Source: a virus | Strand: one strand, 5' to 3' | Length of the DNA: 64,000 nt | IMG/VR virus record: IMGVR_UViG_3300020410_000948 | Coordinates: 1 to 64,000 of that record | In this document: positions 8,535 to 20,655 of the stretch, one piece after another | Layout: every line of letters starts with the position of its first letter | How positions within the stretch are numbered: position 1 is the stretch's first letter | Notes under the pieces: generated by a model | What the model was told of the DNA's origin: nothing | Seen by the model: only the letters and a program-made list of their open reading frames with translations | Databases searched by the model: none | Translations under genes and position numbers: made by a program

Positions 8535-8702
8535 ATGAACTTTGGGATGCTTGCAATCACTACAGCTTCGCTAATGTACTTAGTTGTATGTATTTCCTGT
8601 ATAAAACAAAAAGATTATCCACACGCACTGATGTGGTTTTCTTATGCTATGGCTAACATTGGATTATTATGGTACGAAATAAAGAAAACAAGCGGAAATT
8701 AG
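8535..8702 (+). CDS. small two-TM protein (55 aa, not in ORF track)
   Basis: MNFGMLAITTASLMYLVVCISCIKQKDYPHALMWFSYAMANIGLLWYEIKKTSGN; starts immediately after the previous TAA, with GAGGG upstream. Confidence 0.65.
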   Translation: MNFGMLAITTASLMYLVVCISCIKQKDYPHALMWFSYAMANIGLLWYEIKKTSGN

Positions 8703-10144
8703 AAGATTTGGCCGCTGAAAGAGCTGTGCTTGCAGGGCTTTGCCAGTATGGAATAGATGTTCTCCTTGACATTGATTACATTGACACAGATTATTTTGTC
8801 GATGAGAAAAATCAAGTTATATTTAATTGTGTCAAGAAGGCCCTAAAGGAAACCCAAAGGGCTGAGCTAGCATCAATTCTGTCGGCAGCAAACCAGCTTG
8901 ATCTGTACGCTAATATTAGTAATCAAGAAGAGATAGGATTTCTGCGATCTCTGTTTAATTTTCCGATACATCAAGAGAATGTTCGGGTTCATGCTGAAAA
9001 ATTAGCAAAGCTCAAAGTGGCGAGAGATGTAAAGCAGACACTTAATATCTGCTCCTCTAGGATTGACAAGATAACGGGAGATGAGGATATAAATGATATT
9101 ATATCTATCGTAGAAACGCCAGTTCTTGATGCCACCGCCAAGATATATCAAACATCTGACAATAAGCCGGAAATTATTGGTGGTGAGCTAGAAGAGTATA
9201 TTGAATTCCTGAAAGACAACCAGAGCGAGATGATGGGGATTAGCACTGGCTTTCCTACTTATGATGAGGCAATCGGAGGCGGGTTGAGAAGGAAGTGTGT
9301 TGATCTTGTGGCAGCGCGTCCCAAAGTGGGTAAGTCTATGTTTGGAGATGCTGTAGCTATGCACGTATCAAAAAACTTGGATATTCCCGTATTGATGCTG
9401 GATACTGAAATGTCTAAAGAAGACCACCTCAATCGGATGCTTGCCAACATCAGTGGGGTTGAAATAAACAATATTGCTAGCGGAAATTTTGCAAGCAACA
9501 ACCTAAATAGCGAGAAAATTGAGTGTGCAGCAGAAGAACTTTCCGAGATACCATACCACTACGTAAGTATCGCTGGACAGCCCTTTGAGAATATACTTAG
9601 TATTATGAGAAAGTGGATTTATCAAGAGGTGGGCTTTGATGAAAACGGCAGAACAAAAGACTGTTTGATTATTTATGACTACTTAAAACTAATGAGTTCG
9701 GACAGTATATCAAACTCCATGCAGGAGTTTCAAGTTCTTGGTTTTCAAATCACGCAGCTCCATAACTTCTGCGTTAAGTATGATGTTCCATGCCTAAGTT
9801 TTGTACAGCTAAACAGAGACGGCATAACAAAGGAATCGACTGATGTTGTATCAGGATCTGACAGGCTTATATGGTTATGTACTAGCTTTACTATTTTCAA
9901 AATGAAGTCTGACGAAGAGATGGCTGATGATGATGAAGATAATGGCAATAGGAAACTTGTCCCTATTGTTGCTAGACATGGCGCGGGACTCGATGACGGC
10001 GATTACATAAATATGAATATGTTCGGAAAGTTTGGCAAGCTTGTAGAGGGTCAAACAAGAAATCAACTAAAAACTAAATCTAGGATAAGAGACAATGGAT
10101 TCGACTCAACAGGTGAACAACCAGCAGATATTGAAGCTCTCTAA
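8669..10144 (+). CDS. dnaB: replicative DNA helicase DnaB
   Basis: AERAVLAG N-domain, GISTGF, AARPKVGKS Walker A, DTEM, IYDYLKL, VQLNR. Confidence 0.93.
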   Translation: MVRNKENKRKLEDLAAERAVLAGLCQYGIDVLLDIDYIDTDYFVDEKNQVIFNCVKKALKETQRAELASILSAANQLDLYANISNQEEIGFLRSLFNFPIHQENVRVHAEKLAKLKVARDVKQTLNICSSRIDKITGDEDINDIISIVETPVLDATAKIYQTSDNKPEIIGGELEEYIEFLKDNQSEMMGISTGFPTYDEAIGGGLRRKCVDLVAARPKVGKSMFGDAVAMHVSKNLDIPVLMLDTEMSKEDHLNRMLANISGVEINNIASGNFASNNLNSEKIECAAEELSEIPYHYVSIAGQPFENILSIMRKWIYQEVGFDENGRTKDCLIIYDYLKLMSSDSISNSMQEFQVLGFQITQLHNFCVKYDVPCLSFVQLNRDGITKESTDVVSGSDRLIWLCTSFTIFKMKSDEEMADDDEDNGNRKLVPIVARHGAGLDDGDYINMNMFGKFGKLVEGQTRNQLKTKSRIRDNGFDSTGEQPADIEAL

Positions 10145-11147
10145 CCAGTTATTTGGCAAGCTAGAATCTTTGCTAAAATACTTTGAGATAGAATATATCG
10201 AATACCCAAACAGATACGCTTTTGCTTGTCCTGTGCATGGTGGAGACAACCCAGAAGGATGTAGTATCTTCACCGATGGCAATACTGCTAAAGGCAACTG
10301 GAATTGTTGGACTAATAACTGTCAAGAAGATTTTGGTAGGAACCTATTTGGTTTTGTTAGAGGTGTTCTTTCTAATGACAGGGCTAAGACTGTCAGTATC
10401 GCAGAGACTGTTAAGTTTTGTTTAGAGTTTCTTGGTCTTAGTAGTGACGACTTGCAGTTTATTAAAGATGTCGAGACTAACAATGATATTAAGCTACTAG
10501 ATATTTTCGACAGAACCCCACAAAGAGTAGAATCTTCTATAGATAGAAATACGGTGACCGAAAGTATTGACATTCCAGCTAAATATTATATTAATCGAGG
10601 ATATACAGAAGAGACACTTAAAAAGTTTGATATAGGAACTTGTAATAAAAAAAGCCGACCAATGTCGGGAAGAGTTGTTGTCCCAATTTATGATGAGGGA
10701 TATAATTACATTGGCTGTATAGGAAGAGCACAATACGAAAACATGAAACCTAAATGGCTTCACAGTAAGGGGTTTAGGAAAAGCTCATACCTTTATGGTC
10801 TAAACTTAGCGAAGGATGAGATACTTTCTACATCAACCGCTGTTTTGGTCGAAGGCCAAGGTGACGTGTGGCGAATGCATGAAGCTGGAGTTACAAATAC
10901 TGTAGGTATCTTTGGGGCCAATCTTAGTGATGACCAATTAGTACTATTAGAAAAAAGCGGAGCGCTCAACTTGGTTATACTTACCGACTATGATGATGCT
11001 GGCTGTCGAGCAGCAGAACAAATAATTGCCAAATGTGGAAGAAGATTCAATTACTACCGGCCTGAAATCACAGAAAAAGATGTTGGAGATATGACGGTAG
11101 ATCAGATACAAACACAAATTATAGACCAATTACATGGAGTAATATAA
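10095..11147 (+). CDS. dnaG: DNA primase (CHC2 zinc finger + TOPRIM)
   Basis: CPVH...WNCWTNNC; GRVVVPI; LYGL; VEGQGDV; DYDDAG. Confidence 0.9.
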   Translation: MDSTQQVNNQQILKLSNQLFGKLESLLKYFEIEYIEYPNRYAFACPVHGGDNPEGCSIFTDGNTAKGNWNCWTNNCQEDFGRNLFGFVRGVLSNDRAKTVSIAETVKFCLEFLGLSSDDLQFIKDVETNNDIKLLDIFDRTPQRVESSIDRNTVTESIDIPAKYYINRGYTEETLKKFDIGTCNKKSRPMSGRVVVPIYDEGYNYIGCIGRAQYENMKPKWLHSKGFRKSSYLYGLNLAKDEILSTSTAVLVEGQGDVWRMHEAGVTNTVGIFGANLSDDQLVLLEKSGALNLVILTDYDDAGCRAAEQIIAKCGRRFNYYRPEITEKDVGDMTVDQIQTQIIDQLHGVI

Positions 11148-11968
11148 TGACAAAGATTATTGCATTTGCCGGCAAGAAACAATCCGGCAAAAACACCTGT
11201 TGTTCCTTTTTGCATGGGTATCAGTTGAGGTCATTTCATTTAGTCGATGAATTCGGTCTTGATGAAGAAGGCTCTCTGGTCGTTAATACTATGATGCTTG
11301 GCGCATCTGGAGAAGCCCAAAAGACAATGGGAGCACTAGATATAACCAGAACAGATAACGACTTTAGTATGTGGGCTGCGTCAAACATGTGGCCTTTTGT
11401 TAAGCATTATTCTTTTGCTTCGGCACTTAAAGAAATATGTGTTGGGTTATTTGGGCTCAGTCAAGAACAGTGTTATGGCTCTGACATAGACAAAAATAAG
11501 CTCACTTGGTTTAGATGGTCAGATATGCCCGGATATAAAGGAAAGAAAAAAGATAAGATGACAGCAAGAGAGTTTATGCAATATGTTGGCACAGACATCT
11601 TTAGGAGTATACATCCAAGCATATGGACAGATAGGACACTTTCTAGTATTGGCAGCGAATCTCCTGCCTTGGCGGTCATCTCGGATTGTCGCTTTCAAAA
11701 CGAAGTGGAGGCTGTACAGAGAGCTGGCGGAAAAGTAATTAAGCTTACTAGAGGTATAGATTCGGATGGTCATTCTAGCGAAACCTCTGTAGATAAACTC
11801 AAGGGGTGTGATGCAACCATTGACAATTCTAAATTAACTGTCGAAGAGACCAATGGAGAGATTGTAGAACTCATGCATTCTTGGGGTTGGTTAGGTAGCG
11901 TGATTGAAAAACCTAAAGAAAAAGATCCAGACAATTTAGTCGGCGGAATCCAGAAAATTAAGGAATAA
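11147..11968 (+). CDS. deoxynucleoside monophosphate kinase
   Basis: FAGKKQSGKNT, SFASALKE, AREFMQYVGTDIFR, ISDCRFQNE, HSSE. Confidence 0.85.
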   Translation: MTKIIAFAGKKQSGKNTCCSFLHGYQLRSFHLVDEFGLDEEGSLVVNTMMLGASGEAQKTMGALDITRTDNDFSMWAASNMWPFVKHYSFASALKEICVGLFGLSQEQCYGSDIDKNKLTWFRWSDMPGYKGKKKDKMTAREFMQYVGTDIFRSIHPSIWTDRTLSSIGSESPALAVISDCRFQNEVEAVQRAGGKVIKLTRGIDSDGHSSETSVDKLKGCDATIDNSKLTVEETNGEIVELMHSWGWLGSVIEKPKEKDPDNLVGGIQKIKE

Positions 11969-11969
11969 A

Positions 11970-12983
11970 ATGTTAGTAACATACATACGTAGCTCTAGCT
12001 ACAATAATTTTGATTATTGTCAAATGCAATACTTCATGACTTATGTTTTGGGTCATCAAACAGTATCTGGCAAGAAAGCTCAGCTTGGGACTGTTGTTCA
12101 TAAGGTAATGGAAGTCTTAGCTGGCTGCAAAAAATTACATCAAGACAAGGCCGAGCTATTGCTTGAGGATGACGCTATCGGAGAGGTCGAGTTCACTAAA
12201 CGTAAACTCGGAACAAAGAAATTTGTAAACGAAATCCTTAAGCGTAGCTACGACCATTACACATCCAACTGTACTCATCACTATACTAATGCTGATTATA
12301 AGTTTTGCGACAAAACAACTTGGGAAGCCCTTACTTATGATGATGGGAACTTTGATCCTCGCAATAGGAATATTGTAGCAGCTGAACCGCAGTTTGACAT
12401 CGCTATCGAGGAGGACTGGGCTAAGTATGAATACGATCTACCGGATGGAACCAAGGTTGAAGGGAGACTTGCAATCAAAGGAACTATTGACCTAGTTACA
12501 GAAGTTGACGATGGGGTCATTGAGGTCATTGACTGGAAAACAGGACGCAGACTCAACTGGGCTACAGGGGAAGAAAAAACCTATGAAAAGCTCTGCAAAG
12601 ATCCACAATTAATGCTTTATCATTATGCTATTTCTAAGCTTTTTCCTGAATATGAAGATGCAATTATGTCGATATACTTTATTAGAGATGGCGGTCCGTT
12701 TAGTGTCTGCTTTGAGGAAGGTGATAGACAAACATTTTTGGGCATGCTCAAAGATAGATTTGAGGAAATAAAGAAAACAACCAAACCTAGACTGCTATCT
12801 AGGAATCAATCTCACTGGAAGTGTCAGAAGCTTTGCGACTTTTGCAAGAAAGATTGGCCCGGAACTAATGATAGTATGTGCAGACATGTCAGCAATCATC
12901 TTGAACAGTTTGGGATGCTTGACACTATACAAGAGTGTACTAGGGAAGGATTTGATATTGGATATTATGAGGCTCCGGGATGA
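11970..12983 (+). CDS. PD-(D/E)XK exonuclease, AddB/Cas4-like with likely Fe-S cysteines
   Basis: GTVVHKVME, GTIDLV, VIDWKTG, QLMLY; one N-terminal Cys plus C-terminal CQKLCDFC...C. Confidence 0.85.
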   Translation: MLVTYIRSSSYNNFDYCQMQYFMTYVLGHQTVSGKKAQLGTVVHKVMEVLAGCKKLHQDKAELLLEDDAIGEVEFTKRKLGTKKFVNEILKRSYDHYTSNCTHHYTNADYKFCDKTTWEALTYDDGNFDPRNRNIVAAEPQFDIAIEEDWAKYEYDLPDGTKVEGRLAIKGTIDLVTEVDDGVIEVIDWKTGRRLNWATGEEKTYEKLCKDPQLMLYHYAISKLFPEYEDAIMSIYFIRDGGPFSVCFEEGDRQTFLGMLKDRFEEIKKTTKPRLLSRNQSHWKCQKLCDFCKKDWPGTNDSMCRHVSNHLEQFGMLDTIQECTREGFDIGYYEAPG

Positions 12984-13636
12984 TAAAAAGAACTTCAAAA
13001 CAAAACGTAAAAAATTTACTAGCTGACAATACCCATTGGAATATTGTGGACATTGGTGGAGGCTCAAGAGCTTGGCCTGAAGCTAATACAATACTAGACA
13101 TAAAAGACCATAGTGGTCTCTATGAAGGCAAAAGATTTGTACAATCGGATGCATGCAAGACTCCGTTCAACGATAAAGAGTTTGACTTTGTTATTGCTAG
13201 CCATATAACCGAGCATATACAGGACATTGAACTGTTTATCTCTGAGCTAACAAGAATAGGCAAGCGAGGATATATTGAAGTTCCAACGCCCCTGTTTGAC
13301 AATTTAACTTTTGGCAATTTAACCGAACATAAGTGGTGGTTATATTTTGATGATGATAAAAATGAACTGCTATATACCGAGAAAAAGGTTAAAATAACGC
13401 AGGTATGGTATCCTGAACAATTAGAGAGACTTGATCCTTATTTTTTCGATATGATGCAAATGAGCTTCATTTGGGAGGATAGTATAGAATACAACAAGTT
13501 AGACCAAGAAAATAAGACAGAGCCGATCATAAAGCTTTACACCACTAAAATAGCGGCCAGAAAAGCATCGGCCAGAAATGAGAATGCCATTTTTTTTCAA
13601 AACGACGGAAGCGGGAGCTTAAGGAAATTACAGTGA
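12980..13636 (+). CDS. class I SAM-dependent methyltransferase
   Basis: VDIGGG, PFNDKEFDFVIASHITEHI, GYIEVP. Confidence 0.85.
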   Translation: MIKRTSKQNVKNLLADNTHWNIVDIGGGSRAWPEANTILDIKDHSGLYEGKRFVQSDACKTPFNDKEFDFVIASHITEHIQDIELFISELTRIGKRGYIEVPTPLFDNLTFGNLTEHKWWLYFDDDKNELLYTEKKVKITQVWYPEQLERLDPYFFDMMQMSFIWEDSIEYNKLDQENKTEPIIKLYTTKIAARKASARNENAIFFQNDGSGSLRKLQ

Positions 13637-14115
13637 TTGAAGTAAAAATTACAGAAGAGATGAAGAAGCGAGCATGGACAAAATCTAGAGAGATGGGAGT
13701 TATCAAAAACTCCATCATGAAGGGCGATGGAAATATTGCTGGATTTCTGGGAGAAGAGGTTGCAAATGTTGTTATTGATGGTACAATAAACAACACATAT
13801 GACTATGACTTAGTTTCTAAGGATGGTCTAAAATATGATGTAAAAACAAAGAGATGTACCTCAGCGCCTAAACCATTTTATGATTGCTCGGTAGCAAACT
13901 TTAATACCAAACAAAAATGTGATCGTTATGTGTTTGTTAGGATCGAGAATAAAAACAGAAGATGGGGCAGAGCTTGGGTTTTAGGCTGGATGGGCCACGA
14001 TGAGTATTTTGACAAGGCTCGAAAGTTGACTAAAGGACAGATAGACCCCTCAAATGGGTTTGTTGTTAGAGCAGATTGCCACAATGTGGCTATCTCAGAA
14101 TTGAATGAATTTTAA
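13633..14115 (+). CDS. phage protein with PD-(D/E)XK-like fold
   Basis: GFLGEEV...YDYDL...YDVKTK pattern; GTG start overlaps the upstream TGA. Confidence 0.6.
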   Translation: MIEVKITEEMKKRAWTKSREMGVIKNSIMKGDGNIAGFLGEEVANVVIDGTINNTYDYDLVSKDGLKYDVKTKRCTSAPKPFYDCSVANFNTKQKCDRYVFVRIENKNRRWGRAWVLGWMGHDEYFDKARKLTKGQIDPSNGFVVRADCHNVAISELNEF

Positions 14116-14132
14116 TATTAGGACATATTGAC

Positions 14133-15704
14133 ATGAATTGGGTTCCATTAAATGTGAAGACGCATTTTAGTCTTCAGAGAGGATTCTCTAAACCTGACAA
14201 GCTAGCTAAAAAGTGCAAAGAATTTGGGTACACGGCTTGTGCCATTACAGACATTAATACTATTTCTGGAGCTGTTACATTCTATAAAGAATGCAAAAAG
14301 AATGGCATAAAACCTATAATTGGTTGCACGCTGGAGTTCGATAACGGCAAGAAGAAAACACTTCTGGCTAAAAACAAATATGGTTGGTATGCTTTAATTG
14401 ACCTAGTATCGAAGAAGAACATGTATGAAGATGATGTTGTATATAAGCTTGTGCAGTCTTCGCTTGACAAAAATCTAATATGTATTGACGGATTGAAGCA
14501 ATACTCCACATACTATGTTGAGTCCAACGAGGCAGAGGTACATAGAATACTATTATGCTCTGGCATGAAAACCACAATGTCTAAAGCAAAATCCAAACTG
14601 GATTCGTTCAAACACTTAAAGCCGTTCTTTTCCTCAGACGGCTTTTATTTGCCAAACATGGAAGAGGCTGTAGACAAATATACAGAGGAACAGATTGCAC
14701 TTAGTGTAGAAATAGCTGAGCAATGCGAAGAATATAATATCTTAGGCGCACCAATGCTGCCTGAGTTTGACTGTCCTCAAGACCAAACTGAAGATGAATA
14801 TCTAAAACAGTTATGCAGAGATGGTTGGCGAACACTACTTGCTGATACAGGCAAGGTTAATGATGAGAGCAAAAAGCAAGAATACTTGGATAGAATTAAA
14901 AATGAGATGGATGTTATATTTGACGCTAAGCTCTCTGGGTACTTCCTGATCGTGCAAGATATTGTTAACCATGTTCGTTCTCAAGGTTGGCTTCCGGGCC
15001 CCGGAAGAGGTTCTGCCGCTGGCTGTCTAATTTCATATCTGATTGGAATCACGGAAATCGACCCAATCGAGTACGATCTTATTTTCGAGAGATTTTACAA
15101 TGCAGGGCGTAATACAGAGGATCACGTGTCACTTCCTGATATTGACTTAGATGTTCCTGCCGAAAATAGAGATGAAGTAATATCTTATATTAAGTCAAAA
15201 TATGGCGAAGATAATGTATCGCAGATGATTACATTTAATAAGCTACAAGGTAGAGCTGCACTCAAAGAAGTCATGAGAATAAATAGCACTGTATCTTTTG
15301 GGGAAATGAATGACGTAACCAAAAACATTCCTAACGAAGCAGATGTGTCTGACTTGATTGAGCAAAGCGGAGAGAAGTCCTTGATAAAGTGGACTTTAAA
15401 ATACCAGCCAGAAGTCTTAGACAGGTGGTGCAAATTGAATAGCGAGGATGATTTGGTTGGGCCGTTATCGTCAGTGTTTGAGCAGGCTATGGATATAGAG
15501 GGAACAATTAAGTCACAAGGCAAACATGCTGCTGGAGTAATAATATCGTCGAATAAACTAACGGAAGTTTGTCCGATGGTTCAAGATAAAAATAATAACC
15601 TTGTCGCTGGTTTTGAAATGGGAGACCTTGAAGAACAGGGACATGTAAAGTTTGATATATTAGGCATTGACCTACTTAGTAAAATAATGGAGATAAAAGA
15701 ATGA
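14133..15704 (+). CDS. dnaE: DNA polymerase III alpha, N-terminal part (PHP + palm/thumb)
   Basis: GPGRGSAAGCLISYLIGITEIDP, FERF, catalytic PDIDLD and KFDILG, GKHAAGV. Confidence 0.93.
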   Translation: MNWVPLNVKTHFSLQRGFSKPDKLAKKCKEFGYTACAITDINTISGAVTFYKECKKNGIKPIIGCTLEFDNGKKKTLLAKNKYGWYALIDLVSKKNMYEDDVVYKLVQSSLDKNLICIDGLKQYSTYYVESNEAEVHRILLCSGMKTTMSKAKSKLDSFKHLKPFFSSDGFYLPNMEEAVDKYTEEQIALSVEIAEQCEEYNILGAPMLPEFDCPQDQTEDEYLKQLCRDGWRTLLADTGKVNDESKKQEYLDRIKNEMDVIFDAKLSGYFLIVQDIVNHVRSQGWLPGPGRGSAAGCLISYLIGITEIDPIEYDLIFERFYNAGRNTEDHVSLPDIDLDVPAENRDEVISYIKSKYGEDNVSQMITFNKLQGRAALKEVMRINSTVSFGEMNDVTKNIPNEADVSDLIEQSGEKSLIKWTLKYQPEVLDRWCKLNSEDDLVGPLSSVFEQAMDIEGTIKSQGKHAAGVIISSNKLTEVCPMVQDKNNNLVAGFEMGDLEEQGHVKFDILGIDLLSKIMEIKE

Positions 15705-15922
15705 TGGATATTACAAGTGATTACAAGTCTGTTCTATTTGAAGGATGTGCTATTGAGTATAAGGATATTAGCCTTTGCAATCTAGGCTCTTATGTGCCTT
15801 CAAGACTCGGTATGTCTAGAACGTATCAAGTCCATTCAAAAAGACACAAGTTTAGTAAGTTGTATAAAAACATTGATGATGCTGTCGCTATGTTTTTGGA
15901 ATTGAAGAGGAGAGATAAATGA
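15701..15922 (+). CDS. hypothetical protein between the dnaE halves
   Basis: 73 aa, ATGA-coupled on both sides, GGAG RBS. Confidence 0.7.
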   Translation: MMDITSDYKSVLFEGCAIEYKDISLCNLGSYVPSRLGMSRTYQVHSKRHKFSKLYKNIDDAVAMFLELKRRDK

Positions 15923-16608
15923 ACTATAGAGATATAATTGTTTTTGACTTTGAGACTGGATCTAGAAATCCACATAAAACACAACCGACACAAATCGCGG
16001 CGATAGCACTACATGGGCGTAAACTAACATTGCAGCCCGGAGGTGTGTTTAACAGCGAAATCCGTCCTATCTTAGATGACAAAAAGGCTATCGAGGCTGG
16101 TTTTGATCCGATTGAAGATGAGGCACTTGAGATTACAGGCAAGACACGTAAAGCGCTAGCCAAGGCACCCCTACCTAAAACGGTATGGCAGAAGTTTGAA
16201 GATTTCTGCAACAAGTTCAACTTCAGAGGGACTTCTTACACTGCTCCTATTGCTGCGGGCTACAACATTATCGGCTTTGACCTGCCAATCGTTCAGCGCA
16301 TGTGCGATATGTATGGGACTACTGACTCAAGGGGTCGTCAAACGGTGTTCAATCCGATCTTTAAACTAGATCTGATGGATATGGTATTCTCTTGGACTGA
16401 GAACAACAAGGACTTCAAGAGCCTCAGTATGGACTTTCTGAGAGACTATATGGGTTTCCCTGAAGAAAGCAAGGAGAACGCTCACGACGCGCTGCAGGAC
16501 GTTAAGGACACAGCCAATATACTTATTAAGTTTCTAAAGTTTCAACGAAACATTTCGGAAAAAACCAAATTTGAGAAAGCATTTGCAAATGGCGAATTCT
16601 ACGTTTAA
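15919..16608 (+). CDS. DEDDh 3'-5' exonuclease (DnaQ/epsilon-like)
   Basis: ExoI FDFETG, ExoII GYNIIGFD, ExoIII HDALQD. Confidence 0.9.
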   Translation: MNYRDIIVFDFETGSRNPHKTQPTQIAAIALHGRKLTLQPGGVFNSEIRPILDDKKAIEAGFDPIEDEALEITGKTRKALAKAPLPKTVWQKFEDFCNKFNFRGTSYTAPIAAGYNIIGFDLPIVQRMCDMYGTTDSRGRQTVFNPIFKLDLMDMVFSWTENNKDFKSLSMDFLRDYMGFPEESKENAHDALQDVKDTANILIKFLKFQRNISEKTKFEKAFANGEFYV

Positions 16609-18151
16609 TATTGATGACTATAGTGACTCTAATGTTTGGGATTTAATCTGTGAAGGCCAGACAAAAGGTGTCTTTCAGTTAGAGTCGCAGCTTGGTAGAT
16701 CGTGGGCTAAGAGGGTGCGTCCTCGGAACATTGAAGAATTAGCGGCGTTAATATCTTTGATTAGGCCCGGATGTCTAAAAGCCTATACTGAAGGTAAGTC
16801 AATGACGCAGCATTATGTTGACCGTAAAGCTGGTATTGATGAAGTCAAGTATTTACACCCAAGCCTTGAACCAATCCTAAAGGAAACTTATGGGGTTTTG
16901 GTATATCAAGAGCAGTCTATGAAGATTGCGCAACAGCTTGCGGGATTTGACCTAAAAGAAGCGGACAACCTTCGTAAGGCTATCGGCAAGAAAAAAGCCG
17001 ACCTAATGAACCAGATCAAAGGGTCTTTTCTTGAGGGCGCCGTTTCAGTTGGAGGTCTAGAGAAAGAGACCGCTGAAGAAATATTTAGCTGGATCGAGAA
17101 GTCAAATAGATATGCGTTCAATAAATCTCATGCAGTATCATATGCGGTTAATGCTTACAGGAGCGCATATTGCAAACAGTACAAAAGGTTAAAGTTTTTT
17201 GAGGTATATCTGAATCATTCTGAAAGAAAGCCGGATAGCCAGCTAGAAATTAAAGAACTTGTCTCTGATTCAAAGATGTATGATATAGAAAATCTTCCAC
17301 CTAGATTAGGTCACTTTTACGAAGACTTCACCGCCAAAGACAATGTAATATACTTTGGAATTACCAGTGTTAAAGGTGTGGGTAGTGCAGAGGCAAGCAA
17401 GATGCTATCGCTTATACCTGAGCTTGAAGAGAGATTAGACAAATCATTTTCAGATTTTACGTGGGCTGATACATTATTTAATTTTGGACTAAAGATAAAT
17501 AAGACTTGCATGGAATCCTTGATAAATGTGGGCGCTTTCAACGGTTCTAAAAACAGAAAACATAGAAATGCAATGCTTTATGAATACAAAAGCTACAGAG
17601 ATCTTTCTTCCAGAGAAAGAGAGTGGTTATCTGAAAACTACTTGACTGAGGGTTCTTTGGTTCAGAATATTGACAATATGATAAACAACCTAAAAATAAA
17701 CTCAAACAGGCTGATAAAAGTATTTGATGTTCGCAATGTTATTGAATCACCTCCGTTTGATCTTTCTGACCATCCGGATTGGATAGCAGATACTGAGAAG
17801 AAATACATGGGAACATCCTTGACGTTTTCAAAAACTGACTCTATCCAAAGCTCGATAGTTGATTCTACATGCAAAGAAGTTCTATCTGGCAAAATAGGGA
17901 AGGTTACGCTTGCCCTGCATATAAACTCTCTCAGGGAATACACTACCAAGAATGGAAAAAATCCCGGTCAAATCATGGCTTTCTTATCTGTAGAAGACAG
18001 CACAGCTACTCTAGACTCTGCTATAGTATTCCCAGACGCATACGAAGAGTTCAAGACTATACTATATGAAGGCAATACTGTAATAGCGTTTGGACAAGTT
18101 TCTAAGAAAAAAGATACCAGTTTAATCATTAACAAAGTGTCTCAAGCATAA
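16589..18151 (+). CDS. dnaE: DNA polymerase III alpha, C-terminal part (fingers, HhH, OB)
   Basis: TKGVFQLES, LIRPG, ETYGVLVYQEQ, ADNLRKAIGKKK, YAFNKSHAVSYA, VKGVG, MAFLSVED. ATG at 16589 is preferred over TTG at 16571. Confidence 0.92.
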   Translation: MANSTFNIDDYSDSNVWDLICEGQTKGVFQLESQLGRSWAKRVRPRNIEELAALISLIRPGCLKAYTEGKSMTQHYVDRKAGIDEVKYLHPSLEPILKETYGVLVYQEQSMKIAQQLAGFDLKEADNLRKAIGKKKADLMNQIKGSFLEGAVSVGGLEKETAEEIFSWIEKSNRYAFNKSHAVSYAVNAYRSAYCKQYKRLKFFEVYLNHSERKPDSQLEIKELVSDSKMYDIENLPPRLGHFYEDFTAKDNVIYFGITSVKGVGSAEASKMLSLIPELEERLDKSFSDFTWADTLFNFGLKINKTCMESLINVGAFNGSKNRKHRNAMLYEYKSYRDLSSREREWLSENYLTEGSLVQNIDNMINNLKINSNRLIKVFDVRNVIESPPFDLSDHPDWIADTEKKYMGTSLTFSKTDSIQSSIVDSTCKEVLSGKIGKVTLALHINSLREYTTKNGKNPGQIMAFLSVEDSTATLDSAIVFPDAYEEFKTILYEGNTVIAFGQVSKKKDTSLIINKVSQA

Positions 18152-18165
18152 AACTTTGCTATAAT
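18137..18165 (+). promoter_or_regulatory. putative promoter with extended -10
   Basis: TGCTATAAT (18157-18165) in the gap before ssb, with an ATAGGAG RBS downstream. Confidence 0.55.
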
Positions 18166-18194
18166 CTTTTATACATATTTGAATAGGAGACACA

Positions 18195-18533
18195 ATGAAT
18201 AACTGCAACTTTGTAGGTAGACTAGCATCTGATGTAGAATTAAAAGATGTAGGATCTACTAAACTGGCAATATTTTCAATAGCTGTGGAAGAGCATAGAA
18301 AAGACAAAGAAGGAAACAAGAAGAAAAGAGTTGACTTTTTTGAGTTCGAGGCTTGGGATACGGGAGCTATAACAATACAGAAAATGTGCAAAAAGGGTGA
18401 TATGATAGCGGTTCAATGCTGTGCCAGACAACAAAAATGGACAGACTCTGAGGGTAAGTCAAAACAAAAAGTAAATTTTAGAATGCAAAGCTTTAAGGTG
18501 TTTCATGGAAAAGAACCCAGTGATGAAAAATGA
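18195..18533 (+). CDS. ssb: single-stranded DNA-binding protein (OB fold)
   Basis: MNNCNFVGRLASDVELK, FSIAV, DFFEFEAW, KKGDMIAV. Confidence 0.9.
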   Translation: MNNCNFVGRLASDVELKDVGSTKLAIFSIAVEEHRKDKEGNKKKRVDFFEFEAWDTGAITIQKMCKKGDMIAVQCCARQQKWTDSEGKSKQKVNFRMQSFKVFHGKEPSDEK

Positions 18534-18984
18534 TGACCTGAGTCTAGAGGCTAATTTAGAGATAATTATTTATCTAGTTACTCAATTTAGCGACTCTACA
18601 GATTCATATGAATTTGAGGACTTACTACAGGTGGCATATTTAGGCGCATTAAAAGCTATAAGGAGTTACGATGAAGAGATAGGGCCTCTAAAGCCCTACG
18701 TATTTTCTTGCGTAAGAAATCACCTACTCAGATTTCTGAAGAGCGAGAGGAGATGGTCTGAGTCGGTAGAATTAATTTCAAATATTTCTCCTAAATACAA
18801 TGACGACCATACTTTCATGGAATTCAAAAACGTGATAGATAATACAAAAAAGCTATTACCTTTAGAAAAAAACCTGCTCCATATGAAAGTTCTAGGCCTT
18901 TCGAGAAAAGAGATTTGTGACAATCTTAATCTTACAAGGAATGAATATTATAACTTTATGTACTCAGGACTAGGTAAAATCTAA
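18505..18984 (+). CDS. sigma70-family RNA polymerase sigma factor (compact)
   Basis: Region 2 FEDLLQVAYLGALKAIRSYD...PYVFSCVRNHL; region 4 LLPLEK...GLSRKEICDNLNL. The start may be at 18523. Confidence 0.8.
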   Translation: MEKNPVMKNDDLSLEANLEIIIYLVTQFSDSTDSYEFEDLLQVAYLGALKAIRSYDEEIGPLKPYVFSCVRNHLLRFLKSERRWSESVELISNISPKYNDDHTFMEFKNVIDNTKKLLPLEKNLLHMKVLGLSRKEICDNLNLTRNEYYNFMYSGLGKI

Positions 18985-18987
18985 AGC

Positions 18988-20655
18988 ATGAGAAGAAAAA
19001 AAATACTAATATGTACAGAAGCTCACTGGCTTCCTACTGGCTACTCTGTGTATACCAAAGAGGTTTTAAGTAGACTTAGCAGAAACCCTAATTTTGAAAT
19101 AGTTGAGTTAGCCTGCTATGTCACACAACAAGAGGCTGATGGCCAAAACGTACCTTGGAAAATTATAGCTAATCAACCACTAAAAAATGGCCCGGAGTGG
19201 GAACTATATAAATCAAGTCCTTCTAGTGAATTCGGGGAATTCAGGCTTAACGAAACTTTGATTGATTTTATGCCAGATTTTGTTATGGATATAAGAGACT
19301 GGTGGATGTTGGAGTTCGTTGGTCGCACCCTTTTCCGAGATTTCTTTCAATGGGCAATAATGCCGGCTGTTGACGCTCGTCCTCAAAACAAACAATGGAT
19401 AGACACGTACTCATCCGCAGATGCAGTATTTGCATATTCTGAGTTTGGTAGGGATGTATTGCTAGGGCAGTCGGATGGAATGAATTTTATAGATGTAGCA
19501 TCACCTTGCGCAAGTCCTGTTTTTCATCCACCGGAGAGCAAAAGTGAACACAAGAAGCTCGGAGGTATAGATCCAGATTCTTTCGTTATAGGCACGGTAA
19601 TGAGAAACCAAAGGAGAAAGCTCTACCCAGACTTATTTGAAGTATTCGCAAACTTCTTAGATGCAACCAAAGCAAACAACGCCTACTTATATTGCCACAC
19701 CGCTTATCCAGATTTAGGCTGGGAAATACCGCAACTTCTTCATGAATACGGTATCGGAGACAGGGTATTATTTACATACAGATGTAAAAAATGTGGCACA
19801 ATTACCCCAAAGCTATTCAGCGACGTAATATCTCACTGCTCTCACTGCGGAAGCTACGAATCTCAGATGATTGGAATAAATAACAAAGCAACTGAAGAGG
19901 ATCTAGCGGAGGTCTATAGGTTATTCGATGTATATATTCAGTATGCTAATAGCGAAGGTTTTGGGATGCCTCAACTAGAGGCAACCAGTACTGGATTACC
20001 CTTGATAACGGTTGATTATTCAGCGATGGAGTCGGTGGGAAATAAGATTGGTGCATTCAAAGTTCCTGTCATGAAACTACACACCGAGTGTGAAACTGGA
20101 TGCTTACGAGCTATACCAGACAATGATGCAGCAATGTTGTATCTCATGAAACTTTATTCGCTTGGGAATGAGGCTGTGGTTGATTCCGGCGAAAGAATGA
20201 GACAGGCAACGTTAGAAAACTATAGTTGGGATACGACGGCACAGAAGTGGGGTGACTATTTTGATAGAACTCCCGTGCTTGATCTGAAGAAAACATGGCT
20301 TTCGCCATCAAGAGTGTTCATGCCCGCTAAAGAAATACCAGCGAATCTAAAGTCGGTCAAAGACCAAGTTGACTTTTTATTTACTGATGTTCTTGGTCGT
20401 CCAGAGTGGATAGGTAATTATTTTTGGAAGAGAACCGTCAGAGATCTGACTTATAAAAGCACAATGGCCAGCACTGCTGTTGACTTTCATTTTAGTGAAT
20501 CTCATACTGGCTCTCATGATGTAAGGGCTTGGAGTCGCTTTACTTTACAGGATGCCCACGAAAGCTTTCTAAAGGCGGCAGAAGTAAACAATCAGTGGGA
20601 ACGCTATCGTCTAAAAAAAGTTGAAGCTATAATGTCTGGAGGAGTCAGCAGATAA
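18988..20655 (+). CDS. GT4 (GT-B) glycosyltransferase with zinc-ribbon insert
   Basis: TGYS, VMRNQRRK, EGFGMPQLEA; internal CKKC...CSHC. Confidence 0.85.
   Translation: MRRKKILICTEAHWLPTGYSVYTKEVLSRLSRNPNFEIVELACYVTQQEADGQNVPWKIIANQPLKNGPEWELYKSSPSSEFGEFRLNETLIDFMPDFVMDIRDWWMLEFVGRTLFRDFFQWAIMPAVDARPQNKQWIDTYSSADAVFAYSEFGRDVLLGQSDGMNFIDVASPCASPVFHPPESKSEHKKLGGIDPDSFVIGTVMRNQRRKLYPDLFEVFANFLDATKANNAYLYCHTAYPDLGWEIPQLLHEYGIGDRVLFTYRCKKCGTITPKLFSDVISHCSHCGSYESQMIGINNKATEEDLAEVYRLFDVYIQYANSEGFGMPQLEATSTGLPLITVDYSAMESVGNKIGAFKVPVMKLHTECETGCLRAIPDNDAAMLYLMKLYSLGNEAVVDSGERMRQATLENYSWDTTAQKWGDYFDRTPVLDLKKTWLSPSRVFMPAKEIPANLKSVKDQVDFLFTDVLGRPEWIGNYFWKRTVRDLTYKSTMASTAVDFHFSESHTGSHDVRAWSRFTLQDAHESFLKAAEVNNQWERYRLKKVEAIMSGGVSR

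Follow-up and report, generated by a model that had tools for sequence, protein, structure and literature searches.

A DnaE-type DNA polymerase encoded in two adjacent genes, with an exonuclease gene in the gap, in an uncultured marine phage

The only detectable DNA polymerase of an uncultured marine phage consists of two proteins of the bacterial Pol III alpha type, encoded by two adjacent genes with a DEDDh exonuclease gene in the gap between them. Every bacterial chromosome is replicated by a C-family polymerase; studies of these enzymes have dealt with single chains, and to our knowledge the sole natural split form in the textbooks is the one rejoined by an intein; in cyanobacterial dnaE-n/dnaE-c, the pieces carry the intein halves that ligate them. 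In the phage described here, we consider it probable that the two-gene DnaE works as a non-covalent complex, with the exonuclease from the gap as its proofreader. The DNA analysed (the window) comprises 64,000 nucleotides, positions 1 to 64,000 of the IMG/VR record IMGVR_UViG_3300020410_000948. No PolA or PolB gene was found in the whole 93.8-kb record, which is only ~61% complete, so that a second polymerase could lie in the missing part.

All genes of the cassette lie on the plus strand, and the coordinates of the four ORFs described in the original prediction were confirmed. The N-terminal half of the polymerase, alpha-N (14133-15704, 523 aa, frame 3), which carries a reduced PHP domain, the palm and the thumb, is followed by a conserved 73-aa small ORF (15701-15922), the DnaQ-like DEDDh 3'-5' exonuclease gene (15919-16608, 229 aa), and the C-terminal half, alpha-C (16589-18151, 520 aa, frame 2), which carries the fingers, HhH and OB modules. 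As had been predicted, the halves are in different frames, and the 884 bp, counted exactly from the N-half stop to ATG 16589, are occupied by the small ORF and the exonuclease gene. The start of the small ORF overlaps the alpha-N stop (ATGA at 15701), that of the exonuclease gene overlaps the small-ORF stop (ATGA at 15919), and the exonuclease and C-half genes share 20 nt at 16589; these overlaps suggest coupled translation across the cassette, in line with the single coupled cassette proposed originally. The start of alpha-C is likely ATG 16589 (MANSTFNIDD), with the upstream TTG 16571 as the alternative (526 aa), and the ATG is favoured because in the relative L041, where the former start has been taken over by an inserted gene, the C-half begins anew at MIFNIDD. 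The cassette ends with a single-strand DNA-binding protein (SSB) gene (18195-18533, plus strand; Pfam SSB, 6.1e-17). Upstream on the same strand (8669-11147) are the genes of a DnaB-like helicase (8669-10144; phrog_19 DnaB-like helicase, 1.3e-50) and a DnaG-like primase (10095-11147; Toprim and DNAG_N domains). No homologue of theta and no clamp or clamp-binding motif were identified; as the record is only ~61% complete, a clamp might be encoded in the part not recovered.

Together, the two halves make up a full DnaE, broken in the linker past the third catalytic Asp with no sequence lost. Alpha-N matches Pfam PHP (PF02811, 1.1e-25) and the whole DNA_pol3_alpha profile (PF07733, 2.3e-72, positions 1-260 of 260), while alpha-C matches DNA_pol3_finger (PF17657, 7.6e-48) from profile position 26, followed by HHH_6 (PF14579, 9e-8) and a weak OB match (0.002, under the Pfam cut-off). 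On E. coli alpha the N-half reaches residue 563 and the C-half covers residues 592-896 (651-952 in the Taq alignment), which places the break in the palm/fingers linker, at the protein surface, and an unsplit relative, P0003, runs continuously through the joined N-tail and C-head, nearly residue for residue. The predicted split just past the KFDILG motif, with almost no sequence lost, is thus borne out by both the E. coli alignments and P0003. Likewise, all three catalytic Asp are indeed in the N-half, where D336, D338 and D508 correspond to E. coli D401, D403 and D555 and are invariant among 26 sequences. The features of the DnaE family, a three-Asp Pol-beta-like palm, an N-terminal PHP and the fingers, HhH and OB modules, are therefore all present (the OB below cut-off), except that they are not on one polypeptide, being distributed over two ORFs in different frames and 884 bp apart; each half also stays under the cut-off of the NCBIfam whole-protein models. 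The PHP domain of alpha-N is ~90 aa shorter than in the P0005 clade, and its H-x-H and D-H metal-ligand motifs are replaced (PLNVKTH, TDIN), as would suit an enzyme that depends on an exonuclease encoded separately; the reduced PHP looks structural rather than catalytic.

The window is part of a metagenome assembly, and the arrangement might in principle be an assembly artefact, which we regard as having practically no chance of being correct. Logan contigs from four runs, representing at most four samples and studies and two of them possibly the window's own source, run across 13758-16470 and 16476-18600 with no joint or indel and thereby span every junction, and the order recurs in ~150 IMG/VR contigs that were assembled separately. 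The assembly is real, and the check on it proposed originally came out in its favour. Split reading frames are, furthermore, the usual sign of a pseudogene, and the polymerase gene could be broken and decaying in a phage that replicates with the host Pol III; this is extremely improbable, given that the dN/dS is ~0.03 in both halves (0.032 for alpha-N and 0.029 for alpha-C against L039) with synonymous sites near saturation, that the catalytic residues are invariant, and that over 140 protein clusters (38-98% identity) keep the same break. Purifying selection is strong on all four genes (dN/dS 0.007-0.06) and argues that all four are in use.

Another explanation would have the halves rejoined into one chain, by a split intein, by an intron holding the two gap ORFs, by translational bypass or by a +1 frameshift fusing the exonuclease to alpha-C. 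Deleting 15702-16588 (887 nt) does fuse the halves in frame, as would happen by chance in one case in three, and the exonuclease and C-half frames overlap by 20-38 nt. However, a Pfam search of both halves at E<=0.01 gave no Hint or Intein_splicing match, and there is no room for one, with only 13 aa after the KFD motif and 22 aa before GVFQLES; the predicted lack of intein termini therefore held. The same search readily finds a split-intein relative, L150, in which Hint is detected at 2e-7. Neither was any intron RNA family (group I or II ribozyme core) found up to E=1 in 13500-18700, nor does the cassette leave space for an intron. The gap content of the relatives, which codes for protein over its whole length, is also too variable for any single splicing element, ranging from 14 nt plus the exonuclease gene in L155 to several kb of unrelated genes, and in L041 and L156-L171 the exonuclease and C-half genes do not adjoin, having additional sequence or genes between them. 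We therefore consider rejoining very unlikely. The adjacent ORFs together match the intact homologue with no splicing element detected, and so are, as judged from the sequence, genes in pieces of an intein-free kind; since nothing was found to splice the halves, the enzyme is most likely a non-covalent complex of them.

The exonuclease gene belongs to Pfam RNase_T (PF00929, 3.6e-13), of which it is the sole member in the record, and to phrog_192, annotated "DNA polymerase exonuclease subunit" (2e-23). The Exo I, II and III motifs are present, and D10, E12, D121, H189 and D194 are invariant among 19 exonucleases at 37-99% identity, as expected from the DEDDh assignment made originally; a C-terminal tail, KFEKAFANG..YV, is also conserved. 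The product fails as an epsilon equivalog, scoring 25.1 bits with the NCBIfam epsilon model NF004963 against a cut-off of 245, and no solved relative was detectable by sequence in the PDB, so that the putative proofreader role rests on the DEDDh motifs, phrog_192 and the gene position, from which we presume it to be the proofreading subunit. It could instead be an independent nuclease for recombination or for the processing of primers or host DNA, merely sharing the operon of halves that do form a polymerase. Its distant relationship to DnaQ, with the low epsilon score and no PDB match, would agree with this, as would the tolerance of the gap for unrelated cargo and the position of the small-ORF and exonuclease pair in L150, upstream of the polymerase gene and not inside it. 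Against it, the gene has a dnaE piece as its immediate neighbour in all clades examined and co-diverges with the halves, no other gene of the cassette is as constrained (dN/dS 0.007-0.014; 0.007 against L039), PHROGs groups it with polymerase exonuclease subunits, and the PHP of alpha-N is without nuclease motifs of its own. On balance, an independent nuclease is unlikely.

The 73-aa small ORF has no Pfam, PHROG or NCBIfam match and is without a nuclease signature. In 15 loci, a homologue sharing 38-97% identity immediately precedes the exonuclease gene; in one of these, L150, the two genes lie together ahead of an unsplit junction. The dN/dS of the small ORF is 0.04-0.06 (0.043 against L039). 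The AlphaFold2 model (pLDDT 85) has an alpha-beta4-alpha fold whose best structural match, YkuJ, reaches only Z 6.2. The small ORF is not universal, being missing in the L049/L155 clade, where its absence means that it cannot be an obligatory subunit, and the P0005 clade has another, different small ORF in its place.

In the mechanism that we propose, coupled translation of the overlapping genes would yield the products in similar amounts, and alpha-N and alpha-C would reassemble non-covalently over the large palm/fingers interface known from single-chain Pol III alpha. Proofreading would then fall to the DEDDh exonuclease, in the role that epsilon has in the E. coli core, and its conserved C-terminal tail would probably dock on the reduced PHP. 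The 73-aa protein may assist the exonuclease as an accessory, since the two genes stay adjacent even when relocated, this being the weakest step of the proposal. A more demanding version, which we find decidedly doubtful, would make the exonuclease, with or without the small protein, the physical bridge of alpha-N and alpha-C in an obligate three-part machine, the proofreader sitting at the palm/fingers break and the split not being neutral. If so, the arrangement would be the gene-level counterpart of the embedded exonuclease of PolC, polymerase assembly would depend on the presence of the proofreader, and the repeated switching among split, rejoined and intein-fractured forms within one clade would record selection on assembly.

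The original prediction had asked whether the split point and gene order are conserved, and ~150 related IMG/VR loci agree on both: the order N-half, (small ORF), exonuclease, C-half, SSB is kept in ~48 loci at 78-98% identity, in L047 and L049, in ~70 of the P0005 clade and in ~20 found with P0003, and the SSB gene follows the C-half in nearly all of those that reach that far. The end point is the same as well, with 141 of the 150 nearest 50%-identity cluster representatives stopping fewer than 45 aa past the KFDILG motif. Half-length proteins form at least 5485 clusters (90% identity) at E<=1e-30, many of them called complete genes by Tara; by this count, the split layout is shared by thousands of aquatic phage relatives in a very large clade. 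Split and fused forms interconvert: the few unsplit relatives are nested among split ones, and L150, unsplit at the break studied here, is fractured downstream, at the cyanobacterial-type site, by a split intein with a homing endonuclease. The split probably arose once, at the base of this clade, after which the gap would have become a tolerated slot for cargo and mobile genes, and a few lineages would later have rejoined the halves.

The unrelated genes held in the gap by relatives encode a UDP-glucose dehydrogenase, MUG113/T5orf172 (as in L005), an epimerase, an FdtA-like protein, an RmlD-like enzyme and a PD-(D/E)XK nuclease, and their presence indicates that the halves are independent genes and the gap a true intergenic slot; no free-standing homing endonuclease lies in the gap within the window. 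In the window, a PD-(D/E)XK endonuclease-like gene (13633-14115, plus strand, 160 aa) is the upstream neighbour of alpha-N. Its AlphaFold2 model (pLDDT 88) has the restriction endonucleases NhoI, Eco15I-N, PvuII and DpnI as top Foldseek matches (E 4e-6), and D59 and D69-V-K71 are invariant. The same gene lies between the N-half and the exonuclease gene, within the dnaE gap, in L047 and L157, and directly past the N-half, at the locus end, in L172.

We found no description of this two-gene DnaE layout in the searchable literature, the closest precedents being the split gp43 of T4-like phages, the fractured DnaE genes and the minimal split Pol III of jumbo phages. With the E. coli Pol III core (2HNH, 5FKU, 5M1S) and Taq alpha (2HPI, 3E0D), the enzyme shares the domain order PHP, palm, thumb, fingers, HhH and OB, and with the E. 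coli core also the three catalytic Asp, a separate DEDDh exonuclease gene and a PHP without metal ligands. In contrast to both, a cut between palm and fingers divides the chain into two products, with the exonuclease gene inside the break, and the exonuclease is too diverged for the epsilon model. In the PolC of Firmicutes, a DEDDh exonuclease domain is inserted in the PHP of the same C-family chain, so that there, too, the exonuclease is embedded in the polymerase coding region, whereas here it is a separate gene placed past the palm, and the NCBIfam PolC models give the N-half 54-62 bits against cut-offs of 873 to ~1043.

The fractured DnaE genes of marine metagenomes are adjacent pieces with a homing endonuclease gene between them, ligated by intein halves (Dassa et al. 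2009, PMC2677866). Like the cyanobacterial genes, they encode a C-family replicase in two genes, and like the genes described here their pieces are adjacent with a gene between, but here neither intein halves nor a homing endonuclease is found between the pieces, and the break lies ~165-240 aa upstream of the cyanobacterial one, whose N-piece model PRK09532 (NCBIfam) covers C-half residues 15-179. In group 2.2 jumbo phages, a Pol III alpha core is likewise predicted as two separate proteins, which are minimal, lack PHP or other domains, and are encoded by distantly located genes alongside a PolB replicase (Iyer et al. 2021, PMC7824862), whereas here the domain set is full, the two genes are neighbours, and the ~61% complete record yielded no other polymerase. 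The best model for how the enzyme works is, by analogy, gp43A/43B of Aeromonas phages 25 and 44RR and NrdA of Aeh1, essential replication enzymes encoded in two adjacent genes without a splicing element, sometimes with mobile genes in the gap, whose pieces reassemble: gp43A/43B of phage 25 co-purify and polymerise, and split NrdA is active (PMC2988022, PMC3045599). Those are a PolB and an RNR whose splits are limited to a few phages, in contrast to the very large clade seen here, and the constant gene of the gap is here a putative functional-partner exonuclease, not a homing endonuclease.

In summary, a very large group of aquatic phages keeps Pol III alpha in two pieces, with no rejoining element detected and the cut next to the active site, and cargo genes have landed in the gap repeatedly in these phages. 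Annotation pipelines may score them as having a truncated polymerase. If the pieces reassemble, the genes now labelled "DNA polymerase-3 subunit alpha", as if whole, would need correcting, the palm/fingers linker would be a natural permissive split site, useful for engineering and for studies of fingers movement, and these phages would allow one enzyme to be compared in matched split, fused and intein-fractured versions.

In this record, which is linear, 93.8 kb long and 61% complete by the CheckV estimate, four ORFs were called, in agreement with the original prediction, namely the N-half of a DnaE-type Pol III alpha (alpha-N, 14133-15704, 523 aa), a small ORF (15701-15922, 73 aa), an exonuclease gene (15919-16608, 229 aa) and the C-half (alpha-C, 16589-18151 from an ATG start, 520 aa), with 884 bp running from the alpha-N stop to the ATG at 16589, also as predicted. 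The first two junctions of this cassette are ATGA overlaps, with a purine-rich stretch upstream of each, and at the third the exonuclease and alpha-C genes overlap by 20 nt. An alternative TTG at 16571 also opens the alpha-C frame; the ATG at 16589 is the probable start, because in the related IMG/VR locus L041 the old start (…QMANSTFN) was taken over by an inserted gene, with MIFNIDD as the new beginning of the C-half. By Pfam, alpha-N carries PHP and a complete DNA_pol3_alpha domain, and alpha-C matches the fingers profile from position 26 onwards, HHH_6 and, weakly, OB. When aligned to solved structures, alpha-N reaches residue 563 of E. coli alpha and alpha-C starts at residue 592, and therefore the break falls in the linker after the strand carrying the third catalytic Asp; in 26 N-halves, no variation was seen at the catalytic residues D336, D338 and D508. 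The claim that practically nothing was lost at the split is borne out by the unsplit relative P0003 (a protein cluster representative), which reads …VDILSKVMKIAQDKNLNINDFSDMNVWE… where the window has …IDLLSKIMEIKE and then MANSTFNIDDYSDSNVWD…, so that the joined halves match it almost residue by residue.

An assembly artefact, gene decay or splicing is very unlikely to explain the split. The regions 13758-16470 and 16476-18600 are both spanned, free of joints and indels, by Logan contigs of four runs (two of these runs may be the source of the window itself), and run X11 additionally bridges 16464-16744, so that the assembly stands. The split had been proposed to be intein-free, and indeed no Hint or intein signal is present in either half, while the flanks of the break are too short to house an intein; none of the intron families looked for was found in 13500-18700. 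All four cassette genes are under strong constraint, with dN/dS values against the relative L039 of 0.032 (N), 0.043 (small), 0.007 (exonuclease) and 0.029 (C), the synonymous sites being saturated in comparisons at larger distances than this one. No PolA, PolB or DnaN gene was found in the incomplete record. A fusion of the exonuclease to alpha-C by frameshift was also considered, given their overlapping frames, and was dropped because other genes or spacers part the exonuclease from the C-half in L041 and in L156-L171; the fused exonuclease forms found among longer proteins amount to a single 430-aa protein, which is weak evidence. Over 9500-19500 the promoter scan gave matches at chance level, and the scan for promoters and terminators gave nothing relevant inside the cassette.

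Both the split point and the gene order, whose conservation in related phages was in question, proved to be conserved. A search of IMG/VR with alpha-N retrieved 66 related loci, and the order N-(small)-exonuclease-C-SSB was present in all of those at 52-98% identity that were long enough to show it; the more distant loci, at 25-37% identity, carry a contiguous dnaE. Among 1.84 billion cluster representatives searched in full with HMMER, 22,363 matched, and 141 of the best 150 representatives, which are 38-59% identical and each stand for one 50%-identity cluster, end fewer than 45 aa after the K-F-D-I-L-G motif. The 762-aa N-half of P0101 does not end plainly, having instead a C-terminal fusion to a circularly permuted YpsA/SLOG domain (PF12694, 1.6e-35). 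Searching with P0005, which shares about 50% identity with the N-half of the window, yielded some 70 loci, their contigs ranging from 5 to 231 kb, with the order N, a different 58-62-aa ORF, exonuclease, C and SSB, and the loci found with P0003 have the same cassette with the small ORF present or absent. At least 5485 half-length clusters were recovered at E<=1e-30 in a word-indexed search, many of them Tara Oceans genes called complete, with start and stop codons both present. Against the phage collection, blastn gave no match and tblastn nothing above 35% identity, and an undivided gene was seen in the annotated tblastn matches inspected (Chryseobacterium MA9V-3, Vibrio VA-RY-3). Splits known from other phages, in Cellulophaga phiST, Bacillus WH1 and several PHROG fragment families, lie at different positions in the gene. 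A second recurrent break was observed inside the N-half, close to residues 330-345 and immediately ahead of the PDIDLD catalytic motif, where L172 has its N-half in two pieces in different frames (L172:4289-6222) and where PHROG fragment families, phrog_13169, phrog_7513 and phrog_12219 among them, start or end.

The gene content of these loci shows the gap between the halves to be a real intergenic slot that acts as a cargo slot in close relatives. In L005 it holds a UDP-glucose/GDP-mannose dehydrogenase and a MUG113/T5orf172 protein (L005:7569-9054), in L007 an epimerase, an FdtA-like isomerase and an RmlD-like reductase (L007:6841-9042), and in L041 a 231-aa protein of no assigned family lies between the exonuclease and C (L041:8457-9152). 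A low-depth contig (depth 4) from the marine run X4 joins other sequence to the start of alpha-C at 16603, suggesting that a strain with another gene ahead of alpha-C co-occurs. The variable content of the gap therefore rules out any single splicing element, and it indicates that the halves would be expressed as independent cistrons. We also note that the cargo of close relatives echoes a large glycan island elsewhere in the phage.

One more neighbour is a 160-aa protein encoded at 13633-14115, which had no family match and was modelled with a PD-(D/E)XK restriction-endonuclease-like fold (pLDDT 88), closest to NhoI, Eco15I-N and PvuII. Its gene is highly conserved (dN/dS 0.04) and switches among relatives between the position upstream of alpha-N, as in the window, and the dnaE gap, where it sits in L047 and L157, and in L172 it lies after the N-half, where the locus ends. 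The protein may be a free-standing nuclease that is mobile or depends on DNA modification.

The exonuclease matches phrog_192, "DNA polymerase exonuclease subunit" (2e-23), scores far under the NCBIfam epsilon cut-off and has no match to the PDB by sequence. Across 19 sequences at 37-99% identity its DEDDh residues do not vary, and its C-terminal tail is conserved as K-F-E-K-A-F-A-N-G-x-x-Y-V. The PHP domain of alpha-N is without the H-x-H and D-H motifs and without about 90 residues kept by the P0005 clade, which suggests, as in E. coli alpha, a structural PHP working with an external proofreader. The 73-aa ORF, conserved across 15 loci at 38-97% identity, adjoins the exonuclease gene in all of them, L150 included, and it is absent from the L049/L155 clade. 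Its product was confidently modelled (pLDDT 85) as alpha-beta4-alpha, for which no Foldseek match was obtained at E<=0.001 and YkuJ (Z 6.2) came out as the closest structure, with no informative neighbour; the idea of an AP2-like DNA-binding remnant of a homing endonuclease is unsupported by the fold, the Foldseek result and the YkuJ-only match. In the P0005 clade, the slot between alpha-N and the exonuclease is occupied by the other conserved ORF of 58-62 aa, with the motif …VSCCK..NA… (L093:6878-7054, L078:6878-7066, L132:6865-7044 and others), which has no detectable similarity to the 73-aa ORF.

One polymerase is encoded by two cistrons without a rejoining element. By analogy with gp43A/43B and split NrdA, for which assembly into a working enzyme has been demonstrated (PMC2988022, PMC3045599), alpha-N and alpha-C would reassemble non-covalently across the palm/fingers interface, and the overlapping stop and start codons of neighbouring cassette genes would couple their translation. 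The exonuclease of the gap would work as an epsilon-like proofreader, with the small protein as its possible accessory. In the full-text literature searched, which leaves most subscription journals uncovered, no intein-free DnaE with a break at this site and an exonuclease gene within it was found described; the nearest published cases are split gp43 (PMC2988022), the split-intein DnaE (PMC2677866) and, in jumbo phages, a minimal Pol III alpha that is likewise split (PMC7824862).

As for its origin, a tree was built with MAFFT and FastTree over 323 columns, with 8 unsplit phage DnaEs as outgroup, leaving out 18 of the 150 representatives (17 with a matched span outside 250-450 residues and the fragment P0055), those with longer spans being mostly intein-bearing. 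N-half inserts were seen in P0006, P0058, P0065 and P0082, in some as inteins within the PHP domain, and in L079, L137 and L164 the C-half is broken up close to residues 70 and 180 by inserts about 0.7-1.3 kb long. The split forms make up one clade, with a FastTree support of only 0.68, and Fitch parsimony places one split at its base and four reversions to unsplit (P0041; P0002 and P0003; P0019; P0073, P0089 and P0117), so that one split followed by four re-fusions is our provisional reading; P0117 as a query found no IMG/VR relative. Direct evidence that split and unsplit forms interconvert is given by L150/L151 (L150:4573-11026), with the order nuclease, small, exonuclease and a DnaE continuous at the palm/fingers junction, which ends in a Hint N-piece after the fingers and is followed by a NUMOD3 and DUF559 (Vsr-like) ORF and a 373-aa C-piece, an arrangement in keeping with the "fractured gene" layout described by Dassa et al. 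(PMC2677866). Other members carry inteins inside PHP or fingers (P0006, with an Intein_splicing match in PHP, and P0089). In summary, intein-free splits, intein-mediated fracturing and contiguous genes are all found in one polymerase family, which is also a hotspot for invasive elements.
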